A stretch of DNA of 53,926 nt, from IMG/VR virus record IMGVR_UViG_3300042549_009629, positions 1 to 53,926 of that record; one strand, given 5' to 3'. Below are positions 37,907-51,764 of the stretch, one piece after another. The DNA comes from a virus (lineage: Duplodnaviria > Caudoviricetes). The notes below the pieces were generated by a model. That model saw nothing but the letters and a program-made list of their open reading frames with translations. It did not search any database and was not told where the DNA came from. A program made the position numbers and the translations under genes. Within the stretch, counting starts at the first letter, position 1; each line of letters begins with the position of its first letter.

Positions 37907-40900
37907 TTAAAGCAAACCTTTCTGTGTAAGATCGGTGATATATGTGTCAACGTTTTTATTTAATTCAGGAACTACATATTCAGGAGTTATAATATATGGG
38001 CCTGTTGAATTTATAGGTGCAAATCCTTCAAATAAAATTTGTGAAGCATCATCAACATATCTTCTAATTAAAAAATGATCTAGGTTAAAAGCATTTGAAC
38101 TAGCACTAACTGGAAGGTTTCTATTAAAGTGGACTTCAATTGAACCGGAAACAGATTCAGGAAATATTCTTGAACCAGATCCTTCTTCAGGCCCATAAAT
38201 TGTACCTACTTGATATGAAAAATCTTCTCTACCCTCAAATCTAAATTCATCTCCATATTCTATAGACCACGGTAACACTATTGGATTAAATCCAGAACCT
38301 GTTATACTAGTTTGTTTAACATTAGATTTATAAAGTTCAACTAATGTATAGTTTGATGATGTTATAATGTATGGATAACTTCCAGAATTTGGGAATTGCC
38401 ATATTGAATTGACTCCGGAGGATGTTATTGGTTGTGTATATAGTGGATATTGTGAGACCCAAAGTCTTGGATTTTTAAGATTTAAATTAGAACCTTCAGC
38501 ATAAATTTCAACATAAATAGTATCTCCTACCTCTAAATCTGAGGTTGGAATTTCAATAAAATCTATTCCTTGACCATTGAAAGAAAAACCACCAGCCCCA
38601 TATAGTTGTCCCACTCCACCTTGATCAGGATAGTATACCTTATTAACTCCTCTTTGTTTTACTATTCTTCCATATGCTGGGAAGCCACTTGAACCCGGAA
38701 TATTAATTGTATATTTTGTTTGAACTGAAAGGTTTACCCCGTCTGTTATAGTATTTGCAACAACAGTATATTCATTATTAGATACTGGAGTTCCATATGT
38801 TGTTTGGGTTAAGGGTACTTTAGTCCACGATTGAGCAGGTGGTGTGAATGGTGGAGTGGAAGGACTTGAATATAAAGCGGTATAGTTTCCTACAGCACCT
38901 TGATCAGAAGGAACAATATCTTCAAAACTCATTGTTGTATTCCACTGTGCATTTGGAGCACTTCCTGATTGGGTGTATAAAATAGGCTCAATACGAGACC
39001 CTCCTCTAATTACATTTCTATATTCTATAGCGTTTCCACTACCTACAGTATTTGAATTTATTCTAAATCTTTCTCCAGATTGGAATGTGCCTTGAACATT
39101 TGCAAGTGAATTTTCTGATGTGTTAGGGATAAAAACATCTCCATTTTGGTTAATTAGATATTTAACGTGAAGAGCAGATGCATTCATTCTTTCAGGTGGC
39201 CATCCTCCAATCCAATCACAATATGCAACCATAGTTTTTAAACTTTCTGCGGTTGGTGTTTTACCAAATGTTCCTATATCGCCTTCAGTCCATTTATTTA
39301 AAAATTGAGATGTTGATTTACTACCTAAATATCTTGGGATTATATGACGATTTAAGGTATAATTTGAATCTTGAACTGCTGCTTTCTTTGCACTTCCACT
39401 AATTAAAAGATCAAAATTAACTGGTTCTGTTATACCTGCTGAATAATCTACATCTTGGTAAGTTGTACTTAAACGAGTAAGTTCAACGTTATTTAATAAA
39501 GCATTTTCATCACTATTATAAAAATTAGGTGTTGTGATATAAGGTTCAAAAATAACAGGTTCACAATTTGAAGCACTAACTGCTCTACTTTGAGTAAGTA
39601 ATAATTGAGCTGAGGTTATATTTATTGCTCCTCCAGATAGAGGTTTTTCTAATTTAATATAATATTGGTCGTTTTGGATTGGGTAAAGTGATGCAGTTAG
39701 TAATATATTAGTAGTACCAAGAGTATTATAATATTGTGATGATATTACAGTTTCAATATTATTTCTATTTTGAATTAAAGATATAGGGTAAGATGTACCA
39801 ATACCAAAAGTTCCAGATGAAGTAATTGATGCTGAGAGGGTTAATAATGTATTGGGTGTGTTTTCAAATGTTAATATTCCTGAAGAGGTATTAAAATAGG
39901 AGGTTCCGTAATGGGGTAGGTTAGTTCCAGCTAATGTAGAATTCCAATTTATAACTGTTTTTGGAGAACCATTACCAACATTATATGATGCTGTTACAGA
40001 TGATGATACAGTATAATTAAATACTTGGTTAGGCCAAAATGATGAGATATATGTTTGAGATTTATTTAAAGTGTATAAGTAATAATTTGGGTTTTCATTT
40101 AATACTGTTACATAATATGGAACATATGTTCCTAATACCGAATTATATATTACAACTTGAGTAATATCTCCTAATACAGTTGTATTATTACTTCCACTAC
40201 AATCTATTTTTGCAATTTTTAAATATTGTGTAATCCATACATTATATGGAGGAGTAGGGGGTCCAAAACCAAAAATTCTAACAGGGTAATTATAAAATAA
40301 TATTTCTCCGTTTTGAGGTGAAGTAACATTATTTAAAAAATTATCTTTAAAAGTTACATCTTCTAAAGAACTTGTAATTCCATAGTAATGAACTTGTTTA
40401 TAATATGAATCTTGAACATCTAATGGATAAGATTGATTTAATACTTGAGTTGTAACTACTAAGTTAGAACCGCTATATTCACCGTTATAAAACTCATCTT
40501 GATTATCATGTAATACAAGTACCGATCCGGAAACTGTTGGGTAAGATTCGTACCAGCTTTGAGATATGTTGCTAAGGAAGTTAAATTGATTAACCATTCC
40601 TCCGGCACCACCATCAAAATGTTCTACAGTTCCTGGTTGGTAATCATTCCATTGGGGTTTTAAAGTTCCGGAAATGTCCAAATCTTCCCATTCAACTTGT
40701 GGTTGAGGGTATTTATTTCTTTCAAGTAAATGTTGTTTAATAACAACTCCAGAAGCAAGACTTGTACGTGCAGGTACAAAATCTTTAATCATTTTAAATA
40801 ATGAATTATCGAAAAATTTAATTAAACGAATGAAATCTGTTAAATTGTAATTTTTAGTATATTTTTCAAAATATTCATTTCGTAAAGTATCTAAAGCAGG

Positions 40901-43831
40901 ATATGACTCTGCTGAGGATGATCTTAGTCTTGGATCACCTATATAATCTCCTATGTTAAAATACCCAATTTGATTTACTATATCTTCATTAATTTCATTT
41001 TGTGGAGAAAATGCTACTTCAAGATAATTAATATTTTGAGTGTAACTTTGAGATACATTTGCCATTTGAGATAATGACATGAATGGAGATAAAGTATCTC
41101 CTTCAGGTATTACATTATTTTCTAAACGAATTTTATCATTAATTATATTTCTAACTCCTGCTACTGGTTGATCTGAAAAGAAATATTCTGTGTTAGGATT
41201 AAATAAAGGTATAGTAGAGAAATAAAAATTACTATCAGAGGGAAATGAATTTGTAATAGCCCATGAACCTGTAACTTTAGGGTGAATGGAAATGGATCCA
41301 GTGTATAGTTCTCCTCCTAAAGGAGCTCTAAAAATAAGTTCATTAGGGGAACTATTTATTGAATTTCCTTCAATTGAATATGGATTCATTACATAATCCT
41401 TAAATACACTTTCACTTATAGGGATAGTGTAATATCTTAATTCTTGAAAATAACCTTCAAAATTTTTATAGTTGATTGAGTTAAATGAAACAGGTCTTCC
41501 TAAAGATGATAGGGTGCTATTTGTCCAAGAATTATCTGAGGAAGTAATAGATGATGCTGAGTAGAAACCTAAAATGGTATTGTTATCTCCACCTTCATAT
41601 ATTTTATTAGATGTTACTAATTCAAAACTACTAGTTCCTCCTCCTAAGTTATGTCTATTTATCATTACTGACCACCAGTTTCCATCAAAAAATGGTAATA
41701 AAATGCTGGCTGAAGATAATGGGGAATTGGTGAAATCAGGATATAAAGTTAAGTTAGCATATTGATAGTAAGGATCAACAATAGATCCTGAATAAGATCC
41801 ACTAGATAGTAAAGATCCTGTATAGGTTAAGGTTAAGTATGATTTGTCATCAACATACCAAATACTTTGAGAATAAGAAAAATTAGAAGGAAATCCTGAG
41901 GGTTTAAATCTAAACATTAATGAATTGGGAACATCATTTAATGAGGCCCAATCTTTATTTACTTCCCAATCAGTATATAGAAAGTTTTTATTTTTAGTAT
42001 TAAATGAATAATTGAATTCATCTTGCCAATTATCCCAATCATTTGAATTAACTTTATCTTTTCCTCCAAATTCATTAATTCTTAATACAGTATCAGGAAT
42101 ACCATATGAAGTAATAAGAGCGCGCAGACCAGGCAAAGTACCTTTTGACTTGAGTAGGTATGGGATATTGTGGTAAATGCGTTTATATAGCGATTTATTT
42201 ACATCATCTAACGGTAAATAATCATTGGATGCCGAAGTAAATACATTGATATATTCATATCCTGAAGGTGTAGGGAGTGAACCTGTAATATTTGGGAATG
42301 GGAATAAACCACCATCTGGGGTTAAACCTAGAAATGCTGTGTATAAATCTTCATTGGAAAAATTATTTTGATATAATTTAACTCCAAAATCTCTGATTGC
42401 ATCCGCTACTATGTCTTTTGAAATACCATATTCTAAACGATTATCCGCATCATATTTATTTGTTACATCTTTATAATAGATCCAAATATTATCATAATGT
42501 TGACCCACCATGTCAATAAACAATTGATAATTGTCATTGCTTGGATCATTTCTTAAATACTCTGGGATTGCAAAAAATAAATTATCTGGGTTGGATAAAT
42601 CATATTGTGAGGCCGAAAGTAAAAGACCTCCATAATATATAGAATTTTCATCTGAAGATCCTAACCAAGTTAATACTATTGGGTCTGTTGAAGAATAAAG
42701 TTGGTAAGGAGGTTCTGTTGTTGATTTGGGATAAGCAAATGAACCGCTTGAGTAATATAAATAATAATCATAACCATCAAAATTAGTTATAATATCTGTT
42801 ATTTTAGCTTCATATATAGCTTTACTACTACTAACATTATTTGGAGAATTTATTGTAGAATCTAAAACAGCAATGGAAGCAGAGTAATCTTCTAATAATT
42901 CTACTTTATAGTAAAAATTTTCTAGTCTTGTCTTTGCAGAACTAAAATGTATAAAATTAGAAAAAGAAGTATAATCTACATTTATATCAATTTCTTTTTC
43001 TTCAAGTAAACTATTTATTTGATTTCTTGAACTAGTAAGAGTTGTTAAAACTAAATCACTATACGATAATGCTAATGTTGAATTGTTTACTTGATCTTTT
43101 AAATCAAGATTAAAATTAGGACCTCCTATTTTAACAGTATCATTAAATATTATAGGTTCAATTGGAAATGCTATTTGATAACTAATAGGATCTTCAATAG
43201 TAGTAACAACCCATAATGTACTATTTAATTCAATTGTATCAGGTAATGGTTCGTATAATTTAATTAATATAGTTGGGTTATTAATATCTTGATCATCTAA
43301 TTCAATATTGTTAGCTAATATTAAATTATTTTCTCCAAAATTTAAATAAAAATCTACAAAATAATTACTTTCTTCTCTTTCTTTAATAAATGCATTAGTT
43401 TTTTCTACTAAATCTAAAAAAGGTAAATCTGTACTATCTATTCTTAATTCAGTTCTATCGGATGATATTTCAGATATGTAAAGATTTTCAAGATATGATC
43501 CTATTTTTTTATCAAAAAAGTTAAAAGAAGTAATATAAGTACCTTGAGAAAACCCATTGTTAATTAATACTTTTTCAAGATCAATGTTGATTTGAGAAAT
43601 ACTATTATTATTACCTGAGGATTGTCCGTTATTTAGTACAGTGTATTGGGAAAAATTATATTCTAATGATAAAAGAGTTTTATTAGGATCATATATAAAA
43701 AGTTCAATATAACTATCAGATGTAAATTCTTTATTGATGTTAGAAGTAGGGATTAATGTTACAACTTGAGAATTATATTCTGTGGTGGAATTTAAACCTT
43801 GACTACTTACTTGAGTAATTTCTACAGCCAT
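37907..43831 (-). CDS. Large baseplate wedge protein (1974 aa)
   Basis: IPEYL...LLKSKGTLPGLRALITSYGIP (gp7/P2 gpI-like) and FKMIKDFVPAR motifs; LamG-like segment; located in the baseplate cluster. Confidence 0.65.
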   Translation of the reverse strand: MAVEITQVSSQGLNSTTEYNSQVVTLIPTSNINKEFTSDSYIELFIYDPNKTLLSLEYNFSQYTVLNNGQSSGNNNSISQINIDLEKVLINNGFSQGTYITSFNFFDKKIGSYLENLYISEISSDRTELRIDSTDLPFLDLVEKTNAFIKEREESNYFVDFYLNFGENNLILANNIELDDQDINNPTILIKLYEPLPDTIELNSTLWVVTTIEDPISYQIAFPIEPIIFNDTVKIGGPNFNLDLKDQVNNSTLALSYSDLVLTTLTSSRNQINSLLEEKEIDINVDYTSFSNFIHFSSAKTRLENFYYKVELLEDYSASIAVLDSTINSPNNVSSSKAIYEAKITDIITNFDGYDYYLYYSSGSFAYPKSTTEPPYQLYSSTDPIVLTWLGSSDENSIYYGGLLLSASQYDLSNPDNLFFAIPEYLRNDPSNDNYQLFIDMVGQHYDNIWIYYKDVTNKYDADNRLEYGISKDIVADAIRDFGVKLYQNNFSNEDLYTAFLGLTPDGGLFPFPNITGSLPTPSGYEYINVFTSASNDYLPLDDVNKSLYKRIYHNIPYLLKSKGTLPGLRALITSYGIPDTVLRINEFGGKDKVNSNDWDNWQDEFNYSFNTKNKNFLYTDWEVNKDWASLNDVPNSLMFRFKPSGFPSNFSYSQSIWYVDDKSYLTLTYTGSLLSSGSYSGSIVDPYYQYANLTLYPDFTNSPLSSASILLPFFDGNWWSVMINRHNLGGGTSSFELVTSNKIYEGGDNNTILGFYSASSITSSDNSWTNSTLSSLGRPVSFNSINYKNFEGYFQELRYYTIPISESVFKDYVMNPYSIEGNSINSSPNELIFRAPLGGELYTGSISIHPKVTGSWAITNSFPSDSNFYFSTIPLFNPNTEYFFSDQPVAGVRNIINDKIRLENNVIPEGDTLSPFMSLSQMANVSQSYTQNINYLEVAFSPQNEINEDIVNQIGYFNIGDYIGDPRLRSSSAESYPALDTLRNEYFEKYTKNYNLTDFIRLIKFFDNSLFKMIKDFVPARTSLASGVVIKQHLLERNKYPQPQVEWEDLDISGTLKPQWNDYQPGTVEHFDGGAGGMVNQFNFLSNISQSWYESYPTVSGSVLVLHDNQDEFYNGEYSGSNLVVTTQVLNQSYPLDVQDSYYKQVHYYGITSSLEDVTFKDNFLNNVTSPQNGEILFYNYPVRIFGFGPPTPPYNVWITQYLKIAKIDCSGSNNTTVLGDITQVVIYNSVLGTYVPYYVTVLNENPNYYLYTLNKSQTYISSFWPNQVFNYTVSSSVTASYNVGNGSPKTVINWNSTLAGTNLPHYGTSYFNTSSGILTFENTPNTLLTLSASITSSGTFGIGTSYPISLIQNRNNIETVISSQYYNTLGTTNILLTASLYPIQNDQYYIKLEKPLSGGAINITSAQLLLTQSRAVSASNCEPVIFEPYITTPNFYNSDENALLNNVELTRLSTTYQDVDYSAGITEPVNFDLLISGSAKKAAVQDSNYTLNRHIIPRYLGSKSTSQFLNKWTEGDIGTFGKTPTAESLKTMVAYCDWIGGWPPERMNASALHVKYLINQNGDVFIPNTSENSLANVQGTFQSGERFRINSNTVGSGNAIEYRNVIRGGSRIEPILYTQSGSAPNAQWNTTMSFEDIVPSDQGAVGNYTALYSSPSTPPFTPPAQSWTKVPLTQTTYGTPVSNNEYTVVANTITDGVNLSVQTKYTINIPGSSGFPAYGRIVKQRGVNKVYYPDQGGVGQLYGAGGFSFNGQGIDFIEIPTSDLEVGDTIYVEIYAEGSNLNLKNPRLWVSQYPLYTQPITSSGVNSIWQFPNSGSYPYIITSSNYTLVELYKSNVKQTSITGSGFNPIVLPWSIEYGDEFRFEGREDFSYQVGTIYGPEEGSGSRIFPESVSGSIEVHFNRNLPVSASSNAFNLDHFLIRRYVDDASQILFEGFAPINSTGPYIITPEYVVPELNKNVDTYITDLTQKGLL

Positions 43832-45395: not shown

Positions 45396-47240
45396 TTATA
45401 AAGGAACTACTTTACCTTTTATATCAATACTAGGGTATCTTATTTCAAAAATGCTAGGATCTAATGATGGATATATAACTGAATTTTGAGTAGCTGCTGT
45501 TATATCATAAGCATATTGGGAATATCCTATAGATGTTCCTGCAAGGTTTGTTATAATAATATTTTTAACAGTTTGAACTCCTTTTATTTTATCTAAAATA
45601 ATATATAAGTCTTTCATCATAATAGGTTGATTTAATTGCCAATTATCTATTTGAAAAAGGTTTTGCAATTCACTTATACAAGATATTATTACTTCACTAT
45701 TATTATATTCAGGGCGAACTATTATTTCAAAATTAATACCTATATTAATTATATAAGCATCTTTTATTTCAACATTGTCTCCAATCATTCTATATTGGGA
45801 TAAATAAGTTCGTAAATTATTTTTTAATGTATTATTAGCATAATCTAATTGACCATTTGAATTTAAAGATAAAACATATAAATTTAATGTTTCAATTGTT
45901 GAAACTTGGTTATCTGTTAGTTTAGGTTGTTCAATATATGCTTTTGTTATTGCACCATAATCAGAAGGCATACTTAAAGCTCTAATTAAATAATCATCTG
46001 CTGTAACTGAACGTTTTTGGGAAGCAACTAATGATAATGTATTTTGTCTAATTTCTTCTAAAGTATCTCCTCCTCTACCTCCAGCAGCTGGGATAGGGTT
46101 AGTAGAAGCTAATGTATTAAAAATATAATTTGCTGTAGTTGAATTAAGGGTTGGGTTATTAAAACTAGCATTAGTTGTATTTAATGAAGTTAATGTACCA
46201 GCAGCTACATTAGAATTAACTCCCCCTCCTGTTAAATATCTTACTGTTAATGTTGTGCTTGAAGGTGCTATTCCATAAGTTCCTGTATAAAGAAAATTTA
46301 CAGGAGAATATGCTTGTGTTAATTTATCTTTTTTAAATGGTAACCCTAAACCTACATTATTTGGGTTAGGAGTTATCTCTTCAGTTACATTTTCTGGTGA
46401 ACCTGCTCCAAATTGTATTTGTAAATTTTGTAGAGAAGTAAATCTAGTAGCAAATCTCCTAGCAACTTTTTTAAGTTTTAATAAATATGGAGTATCTTTA
46501 TCACTATTAGGGTCATTTATATTAGTATTTTTTATTGTATCTAAAACCATTTCTTGCCCTAAATGATCTACTTCATACCATTGATTACCATCAGAATCAA
46601 ATACATCTAATATTTTTATAATATTTGGAGAACTTAAATTAACTGAATTAAACGGGATTGGGTTAGTAAAATCAAAAGTTTGGACATTAATTATAGATGA
46701 TATAGCAGTTCTAGATTTTTTAAGTAAAAAATATTGTGGTGTATTTCCTGAGATTTGGTAAACTGAAATTTCTGTAGGGTCTTGGGAGCTAGAGATAGAA
46801 AAATCTATTCTATCTTGAATAAGGAAATTTATTCCGTTTTGAGATGATACAGATGTATTTTCTTTTAAAGTTAATGCATAATCATAATCTGGTATAACTA
46901 ATCCACTAACAGTTTTAGCTGGGAGTTGTTGGTAAAAATCTATGGTTGTTTGGGCAACCCCTGTAGTTTTTGGTTTATATCCAAACATATATGCTAAATC
47001 AAATATATTATTTGTTTGTTGGGCATATTGAATGAAATTTTCTTGAAATTGATTATCTAAATAAAAACTTAGAATATCACCAACATATGATGCTTGTTCC
47101 ATAAACATCATTCCTGGGGATGTTGGGGAAAAATCATTATAGGTGGATGGAAAATATGTTTTAGAATATTCTATCAATCGTGATCTAAATTCGGAAAAAT
47201 CCCGATTTATGTATTTTATATCTCTATTTACTGAAGCCAT
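45396..47240 (-). CDS. gp6: Baseplate wedge subunit (T4 gp6/baseplate J-like)
   Basis: RDFSEFR..L, YNDFS..SPG, SYVGDILSFYLD, FGYKP, GG...DTLEEIR, QKRSVTADDY motifs. Confidence 0.85.
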   Translation of the reverse strand: MASVNRDIKYINRDFSEFRSRLIEYSKTYFPSTYNDFSPTSPGMMFMEQASYVGDILSFYLDNQFQENFIQYAQQTNNIFDLAYMFGYKPKTTGVAQTTIDFYQQLPAKTVSGLVIPDYDYALTLKENTSVSSQNGINFLIQDRIDFSISSSQDPTEISVYQISGNTPQYFLLKKSRTAISSIINVQTFDFTNPIPFNSVNLSSPNIIKILDVFDSDGNQWYEVDHLGQEMVLDTIKNTNINDPNSDKDTPYLLKLKKVARRFATRFTSLQNLQIQFGAGSPENVTEEITPNPNNVGLGLPFKKDKLTQAYSPVNFLYTGTYGIAPSSTTLTVRYLTGGGVNSNVAAGTLTSLNTTNASFNNPTLNSTTANYIFNTLASTNPIPAAGGRGGDTLEEIRQNTLSLVASQKRSVTADDYLIRALSMPSDYGAITKAYIEQPKLTDNQVSTIETLNLYVLSLNSNGQLDYANNTLKNNLRTYLSQYRMIGDNVEIKDAYIINIGINFEIIVRPEYNNSEVIISCISELQNLFQIDNWQLNQPIMMKDLYIILDKIKGVQTVKNIIITNLAGTSIGYSQYAYDITAATQNSVIYPSLDPSIFEIRYPSIDIKGKVVPL

Positions 47241-47243
47241 TTA

Positions 47244-47645
47244 TTAAAAATTAAATAATATATTATTTGAAGTGTTTTGGTAAGAATATTTAAGATTAAC
47301 TGTAAGTGAATTAGATACATTTTGAGTTTCAAACACATCTAATGAAATTACATTTACTGAAGGAAAGTAGGTAGATAATTTATTATTTACATCAGTTTTT
47401 AAATTACTTAAATCTCCATCAGATATTTGTTGAAATAAAAATGATCTTAAACCACCTCCAAATGTTGGGTTTAAAGGAATCTCTCCGGGTTCAGTTAAAA
47501 AAAAATTAATAAGATTATTTTTTATAGCTTCTTGAGTAGTATAATTTGAAGTAAATACAGAAGGACCATTAAAAGGAATATTTACCCCAACAGCAATATT
47601 TGGATTTAAATTAAGGGGGTCAATATATTGAGGATTAATAGGCAT
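47244..47645 (-). CDS. gp25: Baseplate gp25/GPW-like protein
   Basis: AIKNNLINFFLTEPGEIPLNPTFGGGLRSFLF motif. Confidence 0.85.
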   Translation of the reverse strand: MPINPQYIDPLNLNPNIAVGVNIPFNGPSVFTSNYTTQEAIKNNLINFFLTEPGEIPLNPTFGGGLRSFLFQQISDGDLSNLKTDVNNKLSTYFPSVNVISLDVFETQNVSNSLTVNLKYSYQNTSNNILFNF

Positions 47646-47980
47646 TATTTACTCATTAATTTCATTATTTGGTCCATTCCTATTTCACCTTCTCCTAAAC
47701 TTCCATTTATAGGATCAACTGATTGAGGTCTAAAGGGTTGTTGAACATCATTTGATGTAAAACTTAAAGCTGTTTCACCTAAAATATCCATATATTTTGA
47801 TTTCAAATCCATTGTTGGTTGAGTAAAAGATGGTTCTGGGGTGTGAGGGGGTGGGTTGTAAGCTTCTCTAACTAATTGTTTAGGTGCTTTAATAGCTTCT
47901 AGTAAGATGTCTTTCAATTCTTCTTGAATTGCTTCTTTAACTGCTTCTTTAATAATTTTTTTAAAATCTGTGCTTTTCAT
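47645..47980 (-). CDS. Hypothetical protein
   Basis: Clean ORF with an amphipathic N-terminus (FKKIIKEAVKEAIQEEL) and its own promoter motif. Confidence 0.5.
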   Translation of the reverse strand: MKSTDFKKIIKEAVKEAIQEELKDILLEAIKAPKQLVREAYNPPPHTPEPSFTQPTMDLKSKYMDILGETALSFTSNDVQQPFRPQSVDPINGSLGEGEIGMDQIMKLMSK

Positions 47981-47994: not shown

Positions 47995-47998
47995 AGGG

Positions 47999-48562
47999 TT
48001 AATCGGTTTTTTCAACAGTTGTTCCTTTTATAGGTTTATTAGTGTCACCAGATACTATAGTACCTGCGGTTTTTGTAATTTCATTTTGAGGAGGGATATA
48101 TAAAGAGTACTTAGTAAATTGAACATGTTTTTGAAGTTTTTTACTAAAAAATGAAGTTAATTGTTCCGCGTGCTGTCCTTTAATTTTTCGATTTTTAGGT
48201 GGTATGATTTCATATTTTCCTTTTAAAGAAATTACTTTCAATTTTTTACCCTCTAAATCTTTGGGAAGATTAAAGGTAATAGGGTTAGAATAATTATAAT
48301 TTCCCTTTTCTTTTTTAAAGTATTGTAAAGATATATTTATACCTGTATATTTCTTATCTGAGTTAAGGAGATAAAATGATGGTGTATCTGCAGTTTGGTC
48401 GGGGTAATATAAAAATTCTAAAGAATATTCTCCATCAGGGATAGTAACATGTCTATTACTCCATTCCTCAAAAGCAATACTAGCAAACCTAACTGTTGTA
48501 TTAATTGACCATAATGATTCTGGATCAACTGTGGTGGGGTCTTTTACTATATAATCATCCAT
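47999..48562 (-). CDS. Hypothetical protein with C-terminal half beta-sandwich tag
   Basis: Ends TKTAGTIVSGDTNKPIKGTTVEKTD, similar to the GH19 protein's C-terminal segment. Confidence 0.5.
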   Translation of the reverse strand: MDDYIVKDPTTVDPESLWSINTTVRFASIAFEEWSNRHVTIPDGEYSLEFLYYPDQTADTPSFYLLNSDKKYTGINISLQYFKKEKGNYNYSNPITFNLPKDLEGKKLKVISLKGKYEIIPPKNRKIKGQHAEQLTSFFSKKLQKHVQFTKYSLYIPPQNEITKTAGTIVSGDTNKPIKGTTVEKTD

Positions 48563-48563
48563 T

Positions 48564-49613
48564 TTAATCTGCTTTTAAATTATTCTGTTGTATATAAAAT
48601 ACAAGCTCGTCTATTAATATCTGATCAATTGAGCTAAAAGACCACTCTCCTTTAAGCATTATTACACCTTGTTTATTTTGAGCAATAGCTCTTCTACGTT
48701 TTAGTGAATTATTTGTATTTTCAGTTTCAACTATCATTTCAAACCCATTTACATTTGTTACTACTGGTATTTCTGTAGATTGTTGGATAGTTAAATTAGT
48801 TAAATCTATAGCTATTTGTTCTTGATCATCATTAGGATAACATGATTGAATAAGTAAATCTAATAAATTTAATAATTGTAATACTTGTGTTAATATTTGC
48901 CTTAATAATACTAATATAGAAAGTATTCCAACATTAATTTTTTTTAATGACGATAATCTTTTATCTAAAATATCTATAATTTTAGTAACATTTGCAGGAA
49001 CAGGGACAGGATTAGCTAATTGAAGGTTAAGAGCAATTTCTAAACCTTGAATAATACCCCCAGTAATACCTAATGTTTTAGTAGTAATATCTATTACTTT
49101 TAAAGTATTATTTAATTGTTTAACTAATTTATTTTTTTTATCAATAATATCATTTATATTACCTTGGGAAGGGCAACTAATTTTTTTCTTAAGTTCTGCT
49201 AAAATTTTATCTTTATTTTGACCAGCTAAATCGGTAGCTTTAGTAATTCCAAATCCTGCTACTAAAGTTAGTACTGTTGGAATTAATATAGTTTTTAGAT
49301 TGTTTACTTGATTAGTTAATCGTTCTTGAGCAAAATAATTAAAATCTTTTTTATCTTTAGATAATTCATCTATTTGAGCTTTAGTAAGTTGAGATGCATT
49401 TATTTTATCTTGTTCTAATCCTTTATTTAAAGGGTTTAATTTAATAACCCCTAAATCATTTTTAGCAGTACCATCTCCTTTATATGGTATTATTTCTAAT
49501 GATTCATATCCCGGGGATTTAATTAAGAGTTTATTAGGGATATTAGATCCAGTTGTTTGAATAGATGAAGTTAAATCTGTTTTAAATTCCCCTTTATTAT
49601 TTGAAGTAATCAT
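48564..49613 (-). CDS. Baseplate-associated helical protein with N-terminal half beta-sandwich and hydrophobic helices
   Basis: Starts MITSNNKGEFK...LLIKSPGYESLEI; hydrophobic segments ILIPTVLTLVAGFGI and VGILSILVLL. Confidence 0.5.
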   Translation of the reverse strand: MITSNNKGEFKTDLTSSIQTTGSNIPNKLLIKSPGYESLEIIPYKGDGTAKNDLGVIKLNPLNKGLEQDKINASQLTKAQIDELSKDKKDFNYFAQERLTNQVNNLKTILIPTVLTLVAGFGITKATDLAGQNKDKILAELKKKISCPSQGNINDIIDKKNKLVKQLNNTLKVIDITTKTLGITGGIIQGLEIALNLQLANPVPVPANVTKIIDILDKRLSSLKKINVGILSILVLLRQILTQVLQLLNLLDLLIQSCYPNDDQEQIAIDLTNLTIQQSTEIPVVTNVNGFEMIVETENTNNSLKRRRAIAQNKQGVIMLKGEWSFSSIDQILIDELVFYIQQNNLKAD

Positions 49614-50476
49614 ATGTTAAAAGGATTAATATCACCGGGTACTGAAATCCCAAATGGATTAGATTGGGTTTCAGTAAGTAATGTTGGTTGTAAAGGGGTT
49701 AATGAAGTAGGAGGAGATTCAATAACTTCAATCGTTATATCATTTACAGGTTGATTTGTATCTAAAGATACTACTATTCCTGTTGTTTTAACTATAGGAT
49801 TAGAGGGAATAATATTTTGTAAAATTTTATAGTATTCTATAGTTTTAGATGCTCTTAATCCTCCTTCTAAACGAGCTGCATTTACTCTATAAGTAACTTT
49901 ATCAATATTGTTAAATTCTACAGCTCCAGAATTAACAATTTTAAATAATCCTCTATTATAGAAATAAAATATAGCTGATGATATAATATGTTTTCCTGAG
50001 ACTTGGTCAGGATCAGTCATTATAGTCTGGTCTTGTAAAAAATCAGCAAATGCTTGATAATTAGATTTTCCGGTTAATTGGATTGCTCCTCTTCCACGAT
50101 AATTCCATCCATCACCTGAGGCTACATCACCATTTCCATTTATACCAGCATATATAAAATTAGCTTTTACTTCACCTGATTTAGGACCTAAAGTATCAGC
50201 AGTATATTTTGGGTTAGCTTTAACTTTTATTTGTCTTTCTTGTTTAAATCTTCCTGAAAATATGTTACCCATTGTCTTAGCAGACCATGTAGTTTTTTCA
50301 CTAAATGCCATAAATCCTCCAGTTTCAACATATGCTTGACCTAACACATAAGACATTTCTTTAGCATTTAAACTATAATAAAGTGCTGTAGCTTTAATAG
50401 TTTCTAAATCAAATTTTCCTGTTACAGGAGAATCTACAAATTTTTGATATTCTATAATAATGTCAGATGAAGTCAT
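49610..50476 (-). CDS. GH19 (chitinase-like) lysozyme, probably virion-associated
   Basis: ETGGF..E, GDGWNYRGRGAIQLTGKSNY; PG-binding-like N-terminus; adjacent to the gp5-like gene. Confidence 0.85.
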   Translation of the reverse strand: MTSSDIIIEYQKFVDSPVTGKFDLETIKATALYYSLNAKEMSYVLGQAYVETGGFMAFSEKTTWSAKTMGNIFSGRFKQERQIKVKANPKYTADTLGPKSGEVKANFIYAGINGNGDVASGDGWNYRGRGAIQLTGKSNYQAFADFLQDQTIMTDPDQVSGKHIISSAIFYFYNRGLFKIVNSGAVEFNNIDKVTYRVNAARLEGGLRASKTIEYYKILQNIIPSNPIVKTTGIVVSLDTNQPVNDITIEVIESPPTSLTPLQPTLLTETQSNPFGISVPGDINPFNI

Positions 50477-50477
50477 A

Positions 50478-51764
50478 TTAAATTACTTTTACAAAATTGG
50501 ATTTTAAATTATTTAATTGAGCTTTAATCCTATTTAAATTGGTTTCAGCTATTGATGCTACTGGTCCTATTGTTGGGTCAGAGGATGGAATACCACTAGG
50601 CCATATTTGTATGGTTTTTAAAGCTGTAGCTAAATTGGAAATCTCAGTAGTTAAACTTTTTAAAAGTTCTACAGTATCATCTCCTTTTAAAACTGATTGG
50701 GATGCATCTTTAGAACCTAATCTAATATCATTTCCATCAATATAAACTTCCTTAGCTTCTATGTTGATACTTTTATTTGAAGATAATCCTACAGATGTTT
50801 GTCCACTTATAATAACACTATCAGATTTTGCGTTTAAAATCACTCTATCCGAATTGAGTATTATCTGGGGTTTACTAAAGGATGATGGGGATGGTGGGGG
50901 TGTTGAATATGAAACAAAATTTTCATTTGCTATACTAAATGGTAATTTTTGATAAGATGTTAAATAAATTGAAGATAAATCTGTTTTAATATTTTCAGTT
51001 ATAGGAATCCAACCATCGTTATTTGGTGTTGGGGATTGACCATTTCTAAAAATAGTAATAGGATCTCCATTTTTCCCAACCTCAGACCAATTATTTTTCT
51101 TTTCACTTTGTGATTTAGATGTACTACCTAAACGAATACTTTGACCATGTCTTCCTTCATGTATTATATCTCCCATAAAAGGCATTAAAGATCTTATATT
51201 AGTTTCTTCAATAAAATTATTTTGGCTGGGGTTGTTTGGGCTATTTAATTCTATTTCAGTTTCTCCATCTTCAACTCTTCTAACATTTCCTCCTTCTGTA
51301 GTTTGATAATCTTGTTGTTGTGAGTCTGGGAGGGTAGAATTAGTAACTAAGTTTGGGTAAGCATTATGGTGAGGATGATTCCATATTCCCATAGCATTCA
51401 TATAATAATATGATGTACTTGAAGTAATATTACCTATTCCTTGATCTGGGAGTTTTAGTAAAAGTACTATTTCATTTATTAAAGGGTAAGTTTTGGATTG
51501 AGGATCATAGGGAAGTGCAAATTCACTATTTGATCTTGTCCCTAATGAGTTTACTACTTCAAAAAATATAGCTCCTATTCCATTCCACTGTCCTACTTTA
51601 TTAAAATATGGATGATTTTCATCCAAAACAATATCTATTACCCTAGCAGAAACTATAAAATTTTGTAGATTTAGAATTTGATTATTAAAGTCAGAAGTAG
51701 CTAAAGTAGTTGATATGGTTACTCCTTGATTTGAATTAGCTATTCCGGTTTTATATAAAGCCAT
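50478..51764 (-). CDS. Baseplate central spike (gp5/VgrG-like)
   Basis: OB-fold-like YPLINEIVL, GDIIHEGRHGQSIRLGS, beta-helix QIILNSDRVILNAK, VLKGD. Confidence 0.65.
   Translation of the reverse strand: MALYKTGIANSNQGVTISTTLATSDFNNQILNLQNFIVSARVIDIVLDENHPYFNKVGQWNGIGAIFFEVVNSLGTRSNSEFALPYDPQSKTYPLINEIVLLLKLPDQGIGNITSSTSYYYMNAMGIWNHPHHNAYPNLVTNSTLPDSQQQDYQTTEGGNVRRVEDGETEIELNSPNNPSQNNFIEETNIRSLMPFMGDIIHEGRHGQSIRLGSTSKSQSEKKNNWSEVGKNGDPITIFRNGQSPTPNNDGWIPITENIKTDLSSIYLTSYQKLPFSIANENFVSYSTPPPSPSSFSKPQIILNSDRVILNAKSDSVIISGQTSVGLSSNKSINIEAKEVYIDGNDIRLGSKDASQSVLKGDDTVELLKSLTTEISNLATALKTIQIWPSGIPSSDPTIGPVASIAETNLNRIKAQLNNLKSNFVKVI

Follow-up and report, generated by a model that had tools for sequence, protein, structure and literature searches.

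In the window, by which we mean the whole stretch of 53,926 nucleotides of freshwater phage DNA analyzed here, a lysozyme and a protein of 187 residues carry similar motifs at or near their C-termini, and the gene between them encodes a protein, here called X, that begins in the middle of a domain. This layout raises the question of whether the pieces are two parts of one beta-sandwich divided between genes and, if so, whether the parts find each other again. A sequence-only reading of the window had proposed both, with strand complementation docking interchangeable cargo onto X.

Results

Gene order around X

The genes for X, the lysozyme, and the 187-aa protein all lie on the minus strand (Table 1). 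The ATG of X overlaps the lysozyme stop codon (ATGA), and the 187-aa gene starts 1 nt past the stop codon of X. X sits between the spike and gp25. The label spike-like for the 428-aa protein reflects its position ahead of gp25/gp6 and the sequence-only reading; the protein matched no Pfam or PHROG profile, and its homologs (24.7–31.1% identity) come from Flavobacterium phage immuto, Microcystis phage Mel-JY01, and one uncultured phage record. The gp25-like and gp6-like genes matched the PHROG baseplate wedge subunits phrog_261 and phrog_219. In nearly all loci, the 111-aa gene is the downstream neighbor of X at an 18-nt gap; in the window, this gap follows the 187-aa gene, not X. The lysozyme matched the phrog_181 endolysins (E 1.1e-32 over residues 38–224); its score on Pfam Glyco_hydro_19 was 20.3 bits, below the cut-off of 25.5, with the catalytic glutamates judged by eye.

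Table 1 Features of the locus in window coordinates
Feature	Position	Strand	Remarks
Spike-like protein, 428 aa	50478..51764	-	Adjoins X directly wherever X is whole
Putative cargo 1: GH19-like lysozyme, 288 aa, C-terminal tag and tail	49610..50476	-	
Putative donor hairpin (strands A-B) on lysozyme, 23 residues	49724..49792	-	Foreign-tag profile, window rank 2
Pro-rich lysozyme tail after hairpin, 37 residues	49613-49723	-	
X: conserved post-spike protein, 349 aa	48564..49613	-	Acceptor half-sandwich, long helices with hydrophobic stretches, C-terminal alpha/beta
Putative acceptor half-sandwich, X residues 1-61, strands C-G	49431..49613	-	Unsplit-domain profile
Putative cargo 2: 187-aa accessory protein, tag at its end	47999..48562	-	
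Putative donor hairpin on 187-aa protein, 23 residues	48005..48073	-	Foreign-tag profile, window rank 1
Conserved 111-aa gene	47645..47980	-	Context gene, normally 18 nt after X
gp25-like wedge gene	47244-47645	-	Pfam GPW_gp25 31.2 bits, cut-off 27.2
gp6/Baseplate_J-like wedge gene	45396-47240	-	Context gene

X belongs to no described family or known fold. A word-based search returned 1424 homologs and a full scan 998 representative clusters; the freshwater and marine phage group is very abundant. The AlphaFold2 model of X (mean pLDDT 67.7) is helical with hydrophobic stretches and had no PDB match by fold or by sequence profile, and the protein atlas gave no usable lead; the C-terminal alpha/beta domain is conserved. 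X showed no homology to VgrG and matched no tape-measure profile in Pfam or PHROG; tape-measure proteins are essential, single-copy, long, helical proteins encoded beside the hub, and their length scales with the tail. Searched by tblastn against cultured phages, X and the 187-aa protein returned nothing at E 1e-3. The immuto homolog of X was detected through synteny only, and Mel-JY01 carries a lysozyme in the region of the X slot but no X there; the literature on these two phages yielded no virion proteomics. Since X has no known fold or family and Mel-JY01 lacks it in this slot, placing X in the baseplate or elsewhere in the virion is a guess from gene order. The 12 closest relatives of X (P0001–P0012, 75–95% identity) all begin at the same point as the window protein, and a scan of viral and metagenome contigs for close relatives returned one contig only, a partial one that bears both labels L001 and L083.

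One hairpin on two proteins

The two C-terminal motifs quoted in the sequence-only reading are present and represent one hairpin motif of ~22 residues common to the lysozyme and the 187-aa protein. Smith-Waterman alignment of lysozyme residues 207–250 with residues 141–184 of the 187-aa protein scored 86 over 43 residues, a value reached by none of 2000 shuffled versions of the 187-aa protein (mean 34.1, s.d. 5.4, maximum 60). A foreign-tag profile, built only from hairpins at other loci (23 distinct cargo genes), was scanned against all 1200 six-frame segments of the window (57,480 aa). Its best match was the C-terminus of the 187-aa protein (E 3.4e-7) and its second the lysozyme tail (E 0.0034), followed by opposite-strand noise (E 0.036), so that the two hairpins are the sole matches in the window. 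The lysozyme hairpin can be aligned with the 23 other cargo tags. In the 187-aa protein, the hairpin is followed only by a final Asp and the stop codon.

The start of X matches the rest of the domain. On a profile of the unsplit domain made from relatives (92 positions), it covers positions 32–91 (E 8e-9), and the tail of the 187-aa protein covers positions 6–24, weakly (E 0.72); the lysozyme tail stays below detection on this profile at E ≤ 10 and is found by the cargo-tag profile alone. Together, the two profiles bear out the proposal of two first halves and a single second half in the window.

No CarboxypepD_reg domain was found by Pfam in the lysozyme, X, or the 187-aa protein at E ≤ 1, the gathering scores of PF13620 and PF13715 not being reached. 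Because Pfam is blank at this level, the sandwich assignment comes from the relatives and not from the scores of the window. The first strand in X is strand C of a CarboxypepD_reg/transthyretin-like sandwich, which approximately half of the X relatives have whole. The unsplit relative L011 reaches 37.3 bits against a cut-off of 32.3 on CarboxypepD_reg and 33.5 bits against 32.2 on CarbopepD_reg_2, whereas Pfam misses the pieces in the window, which are too short or too diverged. In L056, Pfam matches the halves separately, with profile positions 2–23 at residues 102–123 and 28–63 at residues 241–277. Residues 225–350 of the naturally fused relative L032 were modeled by AlphaFold2 as one transthyretin-like sandwich (pLDDT 78.2; blocks of residues 11–40 at mean pLDDT 82–93) in which the tag forms strands A and B (14–23 and 34–38). 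In Foldseek, this model matched the N-terminal extension of SusC (9hfj, TM 0.75 by target), the transthyretin-like domain of carboxypeptidase D (5aq0, TM 0.76 by target), and CnaB2 (8bdw, E 4.3e-4). The hairpin and the start of X are homologous to the two parts of one sandwich, as the sequence-only reading had it: unsplit relatives clear the Pfam thresholds, and the fused relative folds in the model as a single sandwich with the hairpin as strands A-B.

The junction is real

An assembly error near position 49610 had been raised as a possible source of the split. A 1566-nt contig from run X2 (48544–50109) and a 312-nt contig from run X3 (49325–49636) are identical to the window across 49610–49613, and a diverged contig from run X4 spans the junction as well, with two 1-nt indels that compensate each other at a distance of 70 nt; all three are Logan contigs, not raw reads. 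As independent metagenomes carry the identical junction, the split is not an assembly error. It had also been considered that relatives with one fused gene would expose the split as an artefact. Such fused and unsplit relatives were found, yet 26 distinct junctions, varied in spacing and frame, retain the split.

A tagged gene usually accompanies truncated X

Gene order was compared in a table of 79 related loci plus the window, which omits L033, where the C-terminal regex missed X though the same split layout appears, and L001, where X is cut by the contig end. Whole or fused X lies directly downstream of the spike gene in all 41 evaluable loci. An extra gene ending in the hairpin occurs just upstream of truncated X in 31 of 33 loci and upstream of whole or fused X in 0 of 41. 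One of the two exceptions, L045, is an ORF-start artefact, the tagged gene (163 aa) being present, and the other, L048, has a 32-codon ORF (2146–2244) that overlaps the X start and encodes the hairpin only. The switch between split and whole occurred at least 7 times on a quick tree of the X core (76 rows). The complete 173.8-kb genome with L004 holds exactly one tag. In L001, X is 95% identical to the window X, truncated, and located 3 nt after the spike; neither a lysozyme nor a mini-ORF lies between the spike and X, and the downstream side falls beyond the contig. A donor on that side would have to serve, unless X manages without strands A-B.

The survey of relatives also turned up the other domains anticipated on the same tag, as the cargo varies among GH19, DUF5675-type, and unknown domains. 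The catalytic domain has been swapped on a constant tag and tail between the window (GH19) and L002 (DUF5675): the window lysozyme and the L002 cargo are alike only over their last 65 residues, at 52% identity.

The 187-aa protein, a putative accessory cargo

Homologs of the 187-aa protein comprise six from a protein search plus those of L085 and L086. The hairpin is the most conserved part of the family, with 23 of 31 positions invariant in residues 157–187 and 40 of 156 elsewhere (Fisher p 5e-7). L085 (38% overall identity) and L086 keep both the intact tag and the downstream slot at 36–38% identity, and the downstream homolog in L002 has lost the tag without obvious replacement. By hhalign (probability 96.9%, E 2e-10), the cargo domain is homologous to the donors of 160–170 aa encoded upstream in L013-type loci. 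As a cassette, the gene is accessory: in runs X1, X2, and X4, related strains have contigs that lack it exactly, joining 47998 to 48564 and skipping 565 nt, and the 6-nt repeat GATTAA flanks it at both ends. Scans with the protein or its family for close relatives found nothing in viral or metagenome contigs, and the protein atlas gave no usable lead.

A weak Pfam match of the 187-aa protein to DUF5675 (E 6.4e-4, below the cut-off) was considered. The protein was left uncalled because its profile alignment with DUF5675-type cargo is confined to the tag region.

Predicted binding of tag and acceptor

The complex of X residues 1–66 with residues 141–187 of the 187-aa protein was predicted at ipSAE 0.40, 0.40, and 0.41 (best of three controls with X replaced, 0.00). 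Of 80 solved complexes, 58 reach the mark for this score, as do 2 of 110 mismatched pairs; just 7 of those 80, plus both mismatches that passed, score 0.60 or less. The runs agree in at least 93% of contacts, with a partner pLDDT of 61–62. By the tool's own calibration the score is weak, and its verdict on the physical complementation proposed earlier is weak support.

Discussion

In its ancestral form, X, a conserved protein encoded beside the tail spike gene of Immutovirus-like myoviruses, would have started with a seven-stranded transthyretin-like (CarboxypepD_reg) sandwich, a position that often bears N-terminal cargo domains, mostly wall-binding or wall-cutting. In many lineages, the gene has been cut in the long B–C loop, which leaves the cargo with strands A-B on one polypeptide and strands C-G with the rest of X on another. 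By fragment complementation, the two pieces would most likely rebuild the sandwich non-covalently and tether the cargo to X in the virion, from where it may be delivered to the host wall. In the window, the upstream donor would be the GH19-like lysozyme and the second donor the 187-aa protein downstream of X. The two might divide between them the several copies of X in one particle, or they might compete. We regard non-covalent rebuilding of the split sandwich, with cargo tethered to X, as the best explanation of the whole and as a probable one. More tentatively, the system could be a natural modular tag-and-catcher, in which any protein ending in the ~22-residue A-B hairpin loads onto X by completing its first domain. 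Cargo could then be swapped, added, fused, or split, and a 32-residue hairpin-only microprotein would cap the acceptor where there is no cargo.

It is unlikely, in our judgment, that gene fission merely left half-domains that do not interact, with the hairpins as relics and the lysozyme as a free lysis or tail enzyme. The truncated X of L001 without an upstream donor and the tag loss in L002 would fit such a vestige, as would the N-terminus of the X model, partly structured on its own (blocks at pLDDT 51–78). Relics, however, would not be expected to be more constrained than the cargo domain and intact in homologs as distant as those of L085 and L086, nor would L048 be expected to retain an ORF for nothing but the hairpin, and the donor tracks the truncation of X across the loci. 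It is quite unlikely that the hairpin instead has some other target, for example the spike's helical C-terminus, the 111-aa protein, or host peptidoglycan, and is unrelated to the missing strands of X. In favor of this, binding of the hairpin to X is a prediction, and LysM and PG_binding_1 modules occur in long forms of X, so the region deals with the wall. Yet the hairpin is integral to the sandwich in fused and unsplit relatives, donors occur exactly where the acceptor is without these strands, and the complex controls with X replaced scored 0.00. Production of a fused lysozyme-X by frameshift, stop read-through, or coupled re-initiation, which would make docking unnecessary, we consider highly improbable. 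A -1 slip at the overlap of the lysozyme stop and the X start would join the frames, and 4 of the 26 distinct junctions are in frame. The gaps at these junctions nevertheless range from -4 to +42 nt and the frame offsets are distributed 13, 9, and 4, with no conserved frame, and no slippery heptamer was seen at the window junction; because spacing and frames vary in this way, a programmed frameshift is disfavored. Moreover, as the 187-aa gene lies downstream of X, recoding could not fuse it to the N-terminus of X.

For the 187-aa protein alone, another reading is doubtful, though it carries more weight: the gene may be a captured L013-like cassette whose tag is unused on the window X, or its product a cap or competitor that regulates lysozyme loading. 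The exact absence of the gene from co-occurring related strains and its flanking repeats agree with capture, and the protein ends at the same point as the L013-type donors; the search found no longer, fused forms of it, which is weak evidence. Against this stand the downstream slot and intact tag kept in L085 and L086 and the weak support for a predicted complex with X 1–66. L001-like phages may also have a 187-aa homolog as their sole donor, on the side not visible in L001.

The proposed docking of tagged cargo on X has partial parallels in known systems. Unsplit X relatives clear the Pfam thresholds of both PF13620 and PF13715, and the fused relative's model can be superposed on domains of this kind (9hfj, 5aq0); known examples are one continuous chain, whereas here one gene encodes two strands and the following gene five. 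In type VI secretion, a TTR module near the contractile-tail spike, at the VgrG C-terminus, anchors wall- or membrane-attacking enzymes, and fused ("evolved") and separate ("cargo") effectors both exist, as with X. There, however, the spike carries an intact TTR that binds a complete effector. In the window, the domain belongs not to the 428-aa spike-like protein but to X, a separate protein encoded after it, and each partner has only a part of the domain. If docking occurs, it would parallel the duality of cargo and evolved effectors through a different mechanism. Tail-associated lysins fused to a spike or tape-measure protein, the lysozyme domain of T4 gp5 among them, are likewise wall hydrolases encoded in a baseplate or hub cluster and probably particle-borne; here the attachment would be non-covalent, via a split domain, and the carrier is of no described family. 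Such docking would explain how wall-degrading and unknown cargo is exchanged without touching the conserved tail protein, and the hairpin would then be a sequence rule for recognizing virion cargo among hypothetical proteins.

A narrow search of the literature on split beta-sandwiches and strand complementation in phage tails found no description of such an arrangement; if the halves reassemble, this would be a case, evolved in nature, of docking through a split domain in a contractile tail. In chaperone-usher pili, another polypeptide donates the strand that an Ig-like sandwich lacks, which X would resemble. The pilins, from a family unrelated to X, lack one C-terminal strand, supplied by an N-terminal extension, whereas X lacks an N-terminal hairpin of two strands, supplied by the C-terminal end of its partner. 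SpyTag/SpyCatcher is an engineered split of CnaB2 with a single-strand tag locked by an isopeptide bond. There too, a short peptide tag docks on the remainder of a related sandwich fold and can carry any cargo; that system is covalent, whereas nothing here suggests a covalent lock, and the tag and acceptor of X, if they bind, could serve as a small, non-covalent protein-ligation tool.

Results

X, the 349-aa protein of the window, belongs to a gene run for which the minus strand is the coding strand throughout. The X start overlaps the lysozyme stop (ATGA), 1 nt separates the X stop from the start of the 187-aa gene, and an 18-nt spacer follows before the 111-aa gene. The 53.9-kb contig is a piece of a large myovirus genome found chiefly in lake-water metagenomes, and among cultured phages it is closest to Flavobacterium phage immuto, whose large terminase is 57% identical, and to Microcystis phage Mel-JY01. 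On the downstream side of the wedge genes, at 37907-43831 (-), lies a 1974-aa ORF without a PHROG match at E 1e-5, a candidate for a giant fibre or another wedge protein.

Table. Genes of the region in order of transcription
Feature	Coordinates	Strand	Description
Spike-like protein	50478-51764	minus	428 aa
Lysozyme	49610-50476	minus	288 aa; phrog_181 endolysin match, E 1.1e-32; GH19 score 20.3 bits, under the Pfam cut-off of 25.5 bits
X	48564-49613	minus	349 aa
187-aa protein	47999-48562	minus	
111-aa protein		minus	
gp25-like wedge protein		minus	Pfam GPW_gp25, 31.2 bits
gp6/Baseplate_J-like protein		minus	

The sequence-only reading had claimed that the lysozyme near its C-terminus and the 187-aa protein at its end have a similar motif and that X carries the second half of the same CarboxypepD_reg sandwich, and both observations hold. 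In local alignment the two C-terminal motifs score 86, far beyond chance (2000 shuffles: mean 34.1, sd 5.4, maximum 60, 0/2000 at 86). When a profile built solely from the hairpins (strands A-B of the sandwich) that 23 cargo genes in other phages encode was run on 1200 six-frame segments of the window, the best two were the tails of the 187-aa protein (E 3.4e-7) and the lysozyme (E 0.0034), the third match (E 0.036) being noise. The N-terminus of X aligns (E 8e-9) to positions 32-91 of 92, the second two-thirds, of the unsplit-domain profile. Pfam detected no CarboxypepD_reg domain in the window proteins themselves.

Whole sandwiches are present in relatives of X, as the sequence-only reading had suggested looking for. 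X has 1424 homologues by word-based search and 998 representative clusters by full scan. Among the best 120, 43 have a length of 370 aa, and the unsplit N-terminus is present in 46 altogether; some of 341-367 aa begin past strand B, as X does in the window, and others of 473-595 aa have additional N-terminal domains. The 370-aa forms among the matches listed have precomputed PF13715/PF13620 matches, the unsplit L011 protein passes both Pfam thresholds when re-scanned, and in L056 Pfam finds the sandwich halves 120 residues apart in a single chain. In the naturally fused L032 protein, residues 225-350 are predicted by AlphaFold2 to form one sandwich (pLDDT 78.2), with strands 1-2 coming from the hairpin; in structure this model best matches the SusC N-terminal extension, CnaB2 and the carboxypeptidase D transthyretin-like domain. 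Long X representatives carry extra CarboxypepD_reg, LysM and PG_binding_1 modules, in keeping with a function at the host wall. Separately, X genes of 474-645 aa (L058, L065, L081, L055, L080, L056) have domains of 100-300 residues inserted within the sandwich, between strands C-D and strand E, including repeated modules of ~60-100 residues; besides the split, the sandwich accommodates large insertions.

The state of X goes with the kind of gene upstream. We fetched 80 loci around X homologues; the table of neighbours covers 79 of these and the window, with L033, which has the split layout, outside it. Truncated X has an additional 160-420-aa gene just upstream, with a hairpin near its end, in 31/33 loci. 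The two exceptions are L045, an artefact of start-codon calling in which a tagged 163-aa gene does exist, and L048, which has, between spike and truncated X, a 32-codon ORF (2146-2244, +) that codes for the hairpin alone and whose stop shares 4 nt with the X start, a candidate microprotein capping the acceptor without cargo. Where X is unsplit or fused, the spike gene lies directly upstream in 41/41 evaluable loci; beyond these, the upstream side is reduced to a 64-aa fragment, reading like the end of a spike, in one locus and is missing in another, and X runs off the contig in four. In the complete 173.8-kb genome to which L004 belongs, the tag occurs exactly once. A quick maximum-likelihood tree of the X core, built on 76 rows of which 65 differ, requires at least 7 changes of the whole/split state, some of which could be mimicked by recombination of the 5′ part.

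Other domains occur on the same tag, as the sequence-only reading had also suggested looking for. Upstream cargoes comprise GH19-like lysozymes (L004; L034, also with LysM), DUF5675 proteins (L002, 39.5 bits; others weaker), a ~170-aa family also found fused (L012), and a 160-170-aa family (L013 type). Between the lysozyme of the window and the DUF5675 cargo of L002, the sister of the window on the X tree, similarity is confined to the last 65 residues (52% identity), which indicates that the catalytic module was swapped on an unchanged tag and tail.

The 187-aa protein has six homologues, and the hairpin is the most conserved region of the family (invariant at 23/31 positions vs 40/156 elsewhere, p 5e-7). 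Two relatives, 36-38% identical (L085, L086), occupy the same slot, 18 nt before a homologue of the 111-aa gene; the last 17 residues of their tag differ from the window's at three positions and are identical to the family consensus. Homology links the cargo domain to the 160-170-aa donors that L013-type phages encode upstream of X (probability 96.9%, E 2e-10), and with DUF5675 cargo the protein shares tag and linker, nothing more. The gene is a presence/absence polymorphism: in related strains (sequencing runs X1, X2 and X4), 47998 is joined to 48564, skipping the 565 nt of 47999-48563, and the 6-nt repeat GATTAA at both ends of the gene is the last codon and stop of X and of the 187-aa gene. 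In L002 (3346-4039), a deletion has stripped the 155-aa homologue of its tag and the 111-aa gene of its initial ~20 codons, and a 56-aa remnant ORF is left; the locus is either defective or misassembled. We put the chance that the 187-aa protein is a true second donor at about even.

Discussion

In the proposed mechanism, a cargo with strands A-B would, while the tail is being assembled, co-fold with strands C-G of X to give a single sandwich. In this way the wall hydrolase would be carried beside the spike and attack peptidoglycan at infection; fused forms would reach the same outcome covalently, and two donors in one genome would share a particle's several X copies or compete for them. We consider it fairly probable that complementation is the working principle in the window phage. 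Donor-strand complementation in pili and the engineered SpyTag/SpyCatcher pair rest on a similar principle, although their family and topology differ. The closest functional parallel is T6SS VgrG, whose transthyretin-like domain loads effectors that exist in fused and separate forms (PMC7043769); the T6SS domain differs in being whole and on the spike. Narrow literature searches found no account of phage tails that use a split sandwich for this purpose. The arrangement here belongs with virion-associated wall hydrolases and with the loading of cargo onto contractile tails.

The sequence-only reading had allowed that the split might be an assembly or frameshift artefact. Comparing contigs rather than raw reads, we found that those of runs X2 and X3, from two other samples, match the window without a difference at the lysozyme/X junction, which a diverged X4 contig likewise spans; an assembly artefact is thereby ruled out. 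The 12/12 closest X homologues share the start residue of the window X. A single programmed shift joining lysozyme and X is improbable, as 26 distinct split junctions range in gap from -4 to +42 nt and fall into each of the three frame relations (13, 9 and 4). Against complementation stands L001 (2711-4462), whose X is 95% identical to that of the window: it has no lysozyme gene, and the truncated X begins 3 nt past the spike stop with no upstream donor. Either a downstream 187-aa homologue, on the side beyond the contig, which ends inside X, acts as donor and would then be resident in this clade in that role, or X can do without strands A-B.

As for binding itself, a complex prediction of the kind proposed in the sequence-only reading was made for the 187-aa tail (residues 141-187) with X 1-66. 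It gave ipSAE 0.40, 0.40 and 0.41 against 0.00 for the best of three controls (partner pLDDT 61-62; at least 93% of contacts agree between runs) and was graded weak support on a scale whose mark is reached by 58/80 solved complexes and 2/110 mismatches, scores of at most 0.60 coming from only 7 of the 80 solved complexes and from both mismatches above the mark. These models shift the odds of binding a little upward, no more.

Also speaking against, X matched no recognised fold or family (fold search of the model, PDB sequence-profile search, protein atlas), the immuto homologue lacks the sandwich and Mel-JY01 lacks X in the slot after the spike. We therefore infer from gene order, from the helices and hydrophobic stretches of X and from its wall-directed appendages that it belongs to the baseplate or is ejected. 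The immuto protein (L082:8056-9171, gene 155 of Flavobacterium phage immuto_3-5A, 371 aa) starts with a coiled coil instead, has the conserved C-terminal domain and lies in a shared gene order (spike, X, 139-aa gene, gp25, gp6); its annotation, 'DNA repair ATPase, RecN', is probably wrong. In Mel-JY01 the slot (L084:6409-7440) is taken by a 343-aa protein that is acidic and Pro-rich in its N-terminal part and ends in a GH19-like domain, and a 176-aa relative of the 111-aa gene comes next. After its repetitive middle, the spike-like protein of the window ends in ~70 helical-looking residues conserved across loci, a possible contact site for X.

Tag subtype also appears matched to acceptor subtype across loci, in a small number of independent cases: hairpins with an (I/V)-(I/V)-S-G core (L055, L068, L080 and the 187-aa protein of the window) go with X starts bearing an Asn-Asn-x-Gly-Glu strand-C motif, and other hairpin types accompany other X starts.
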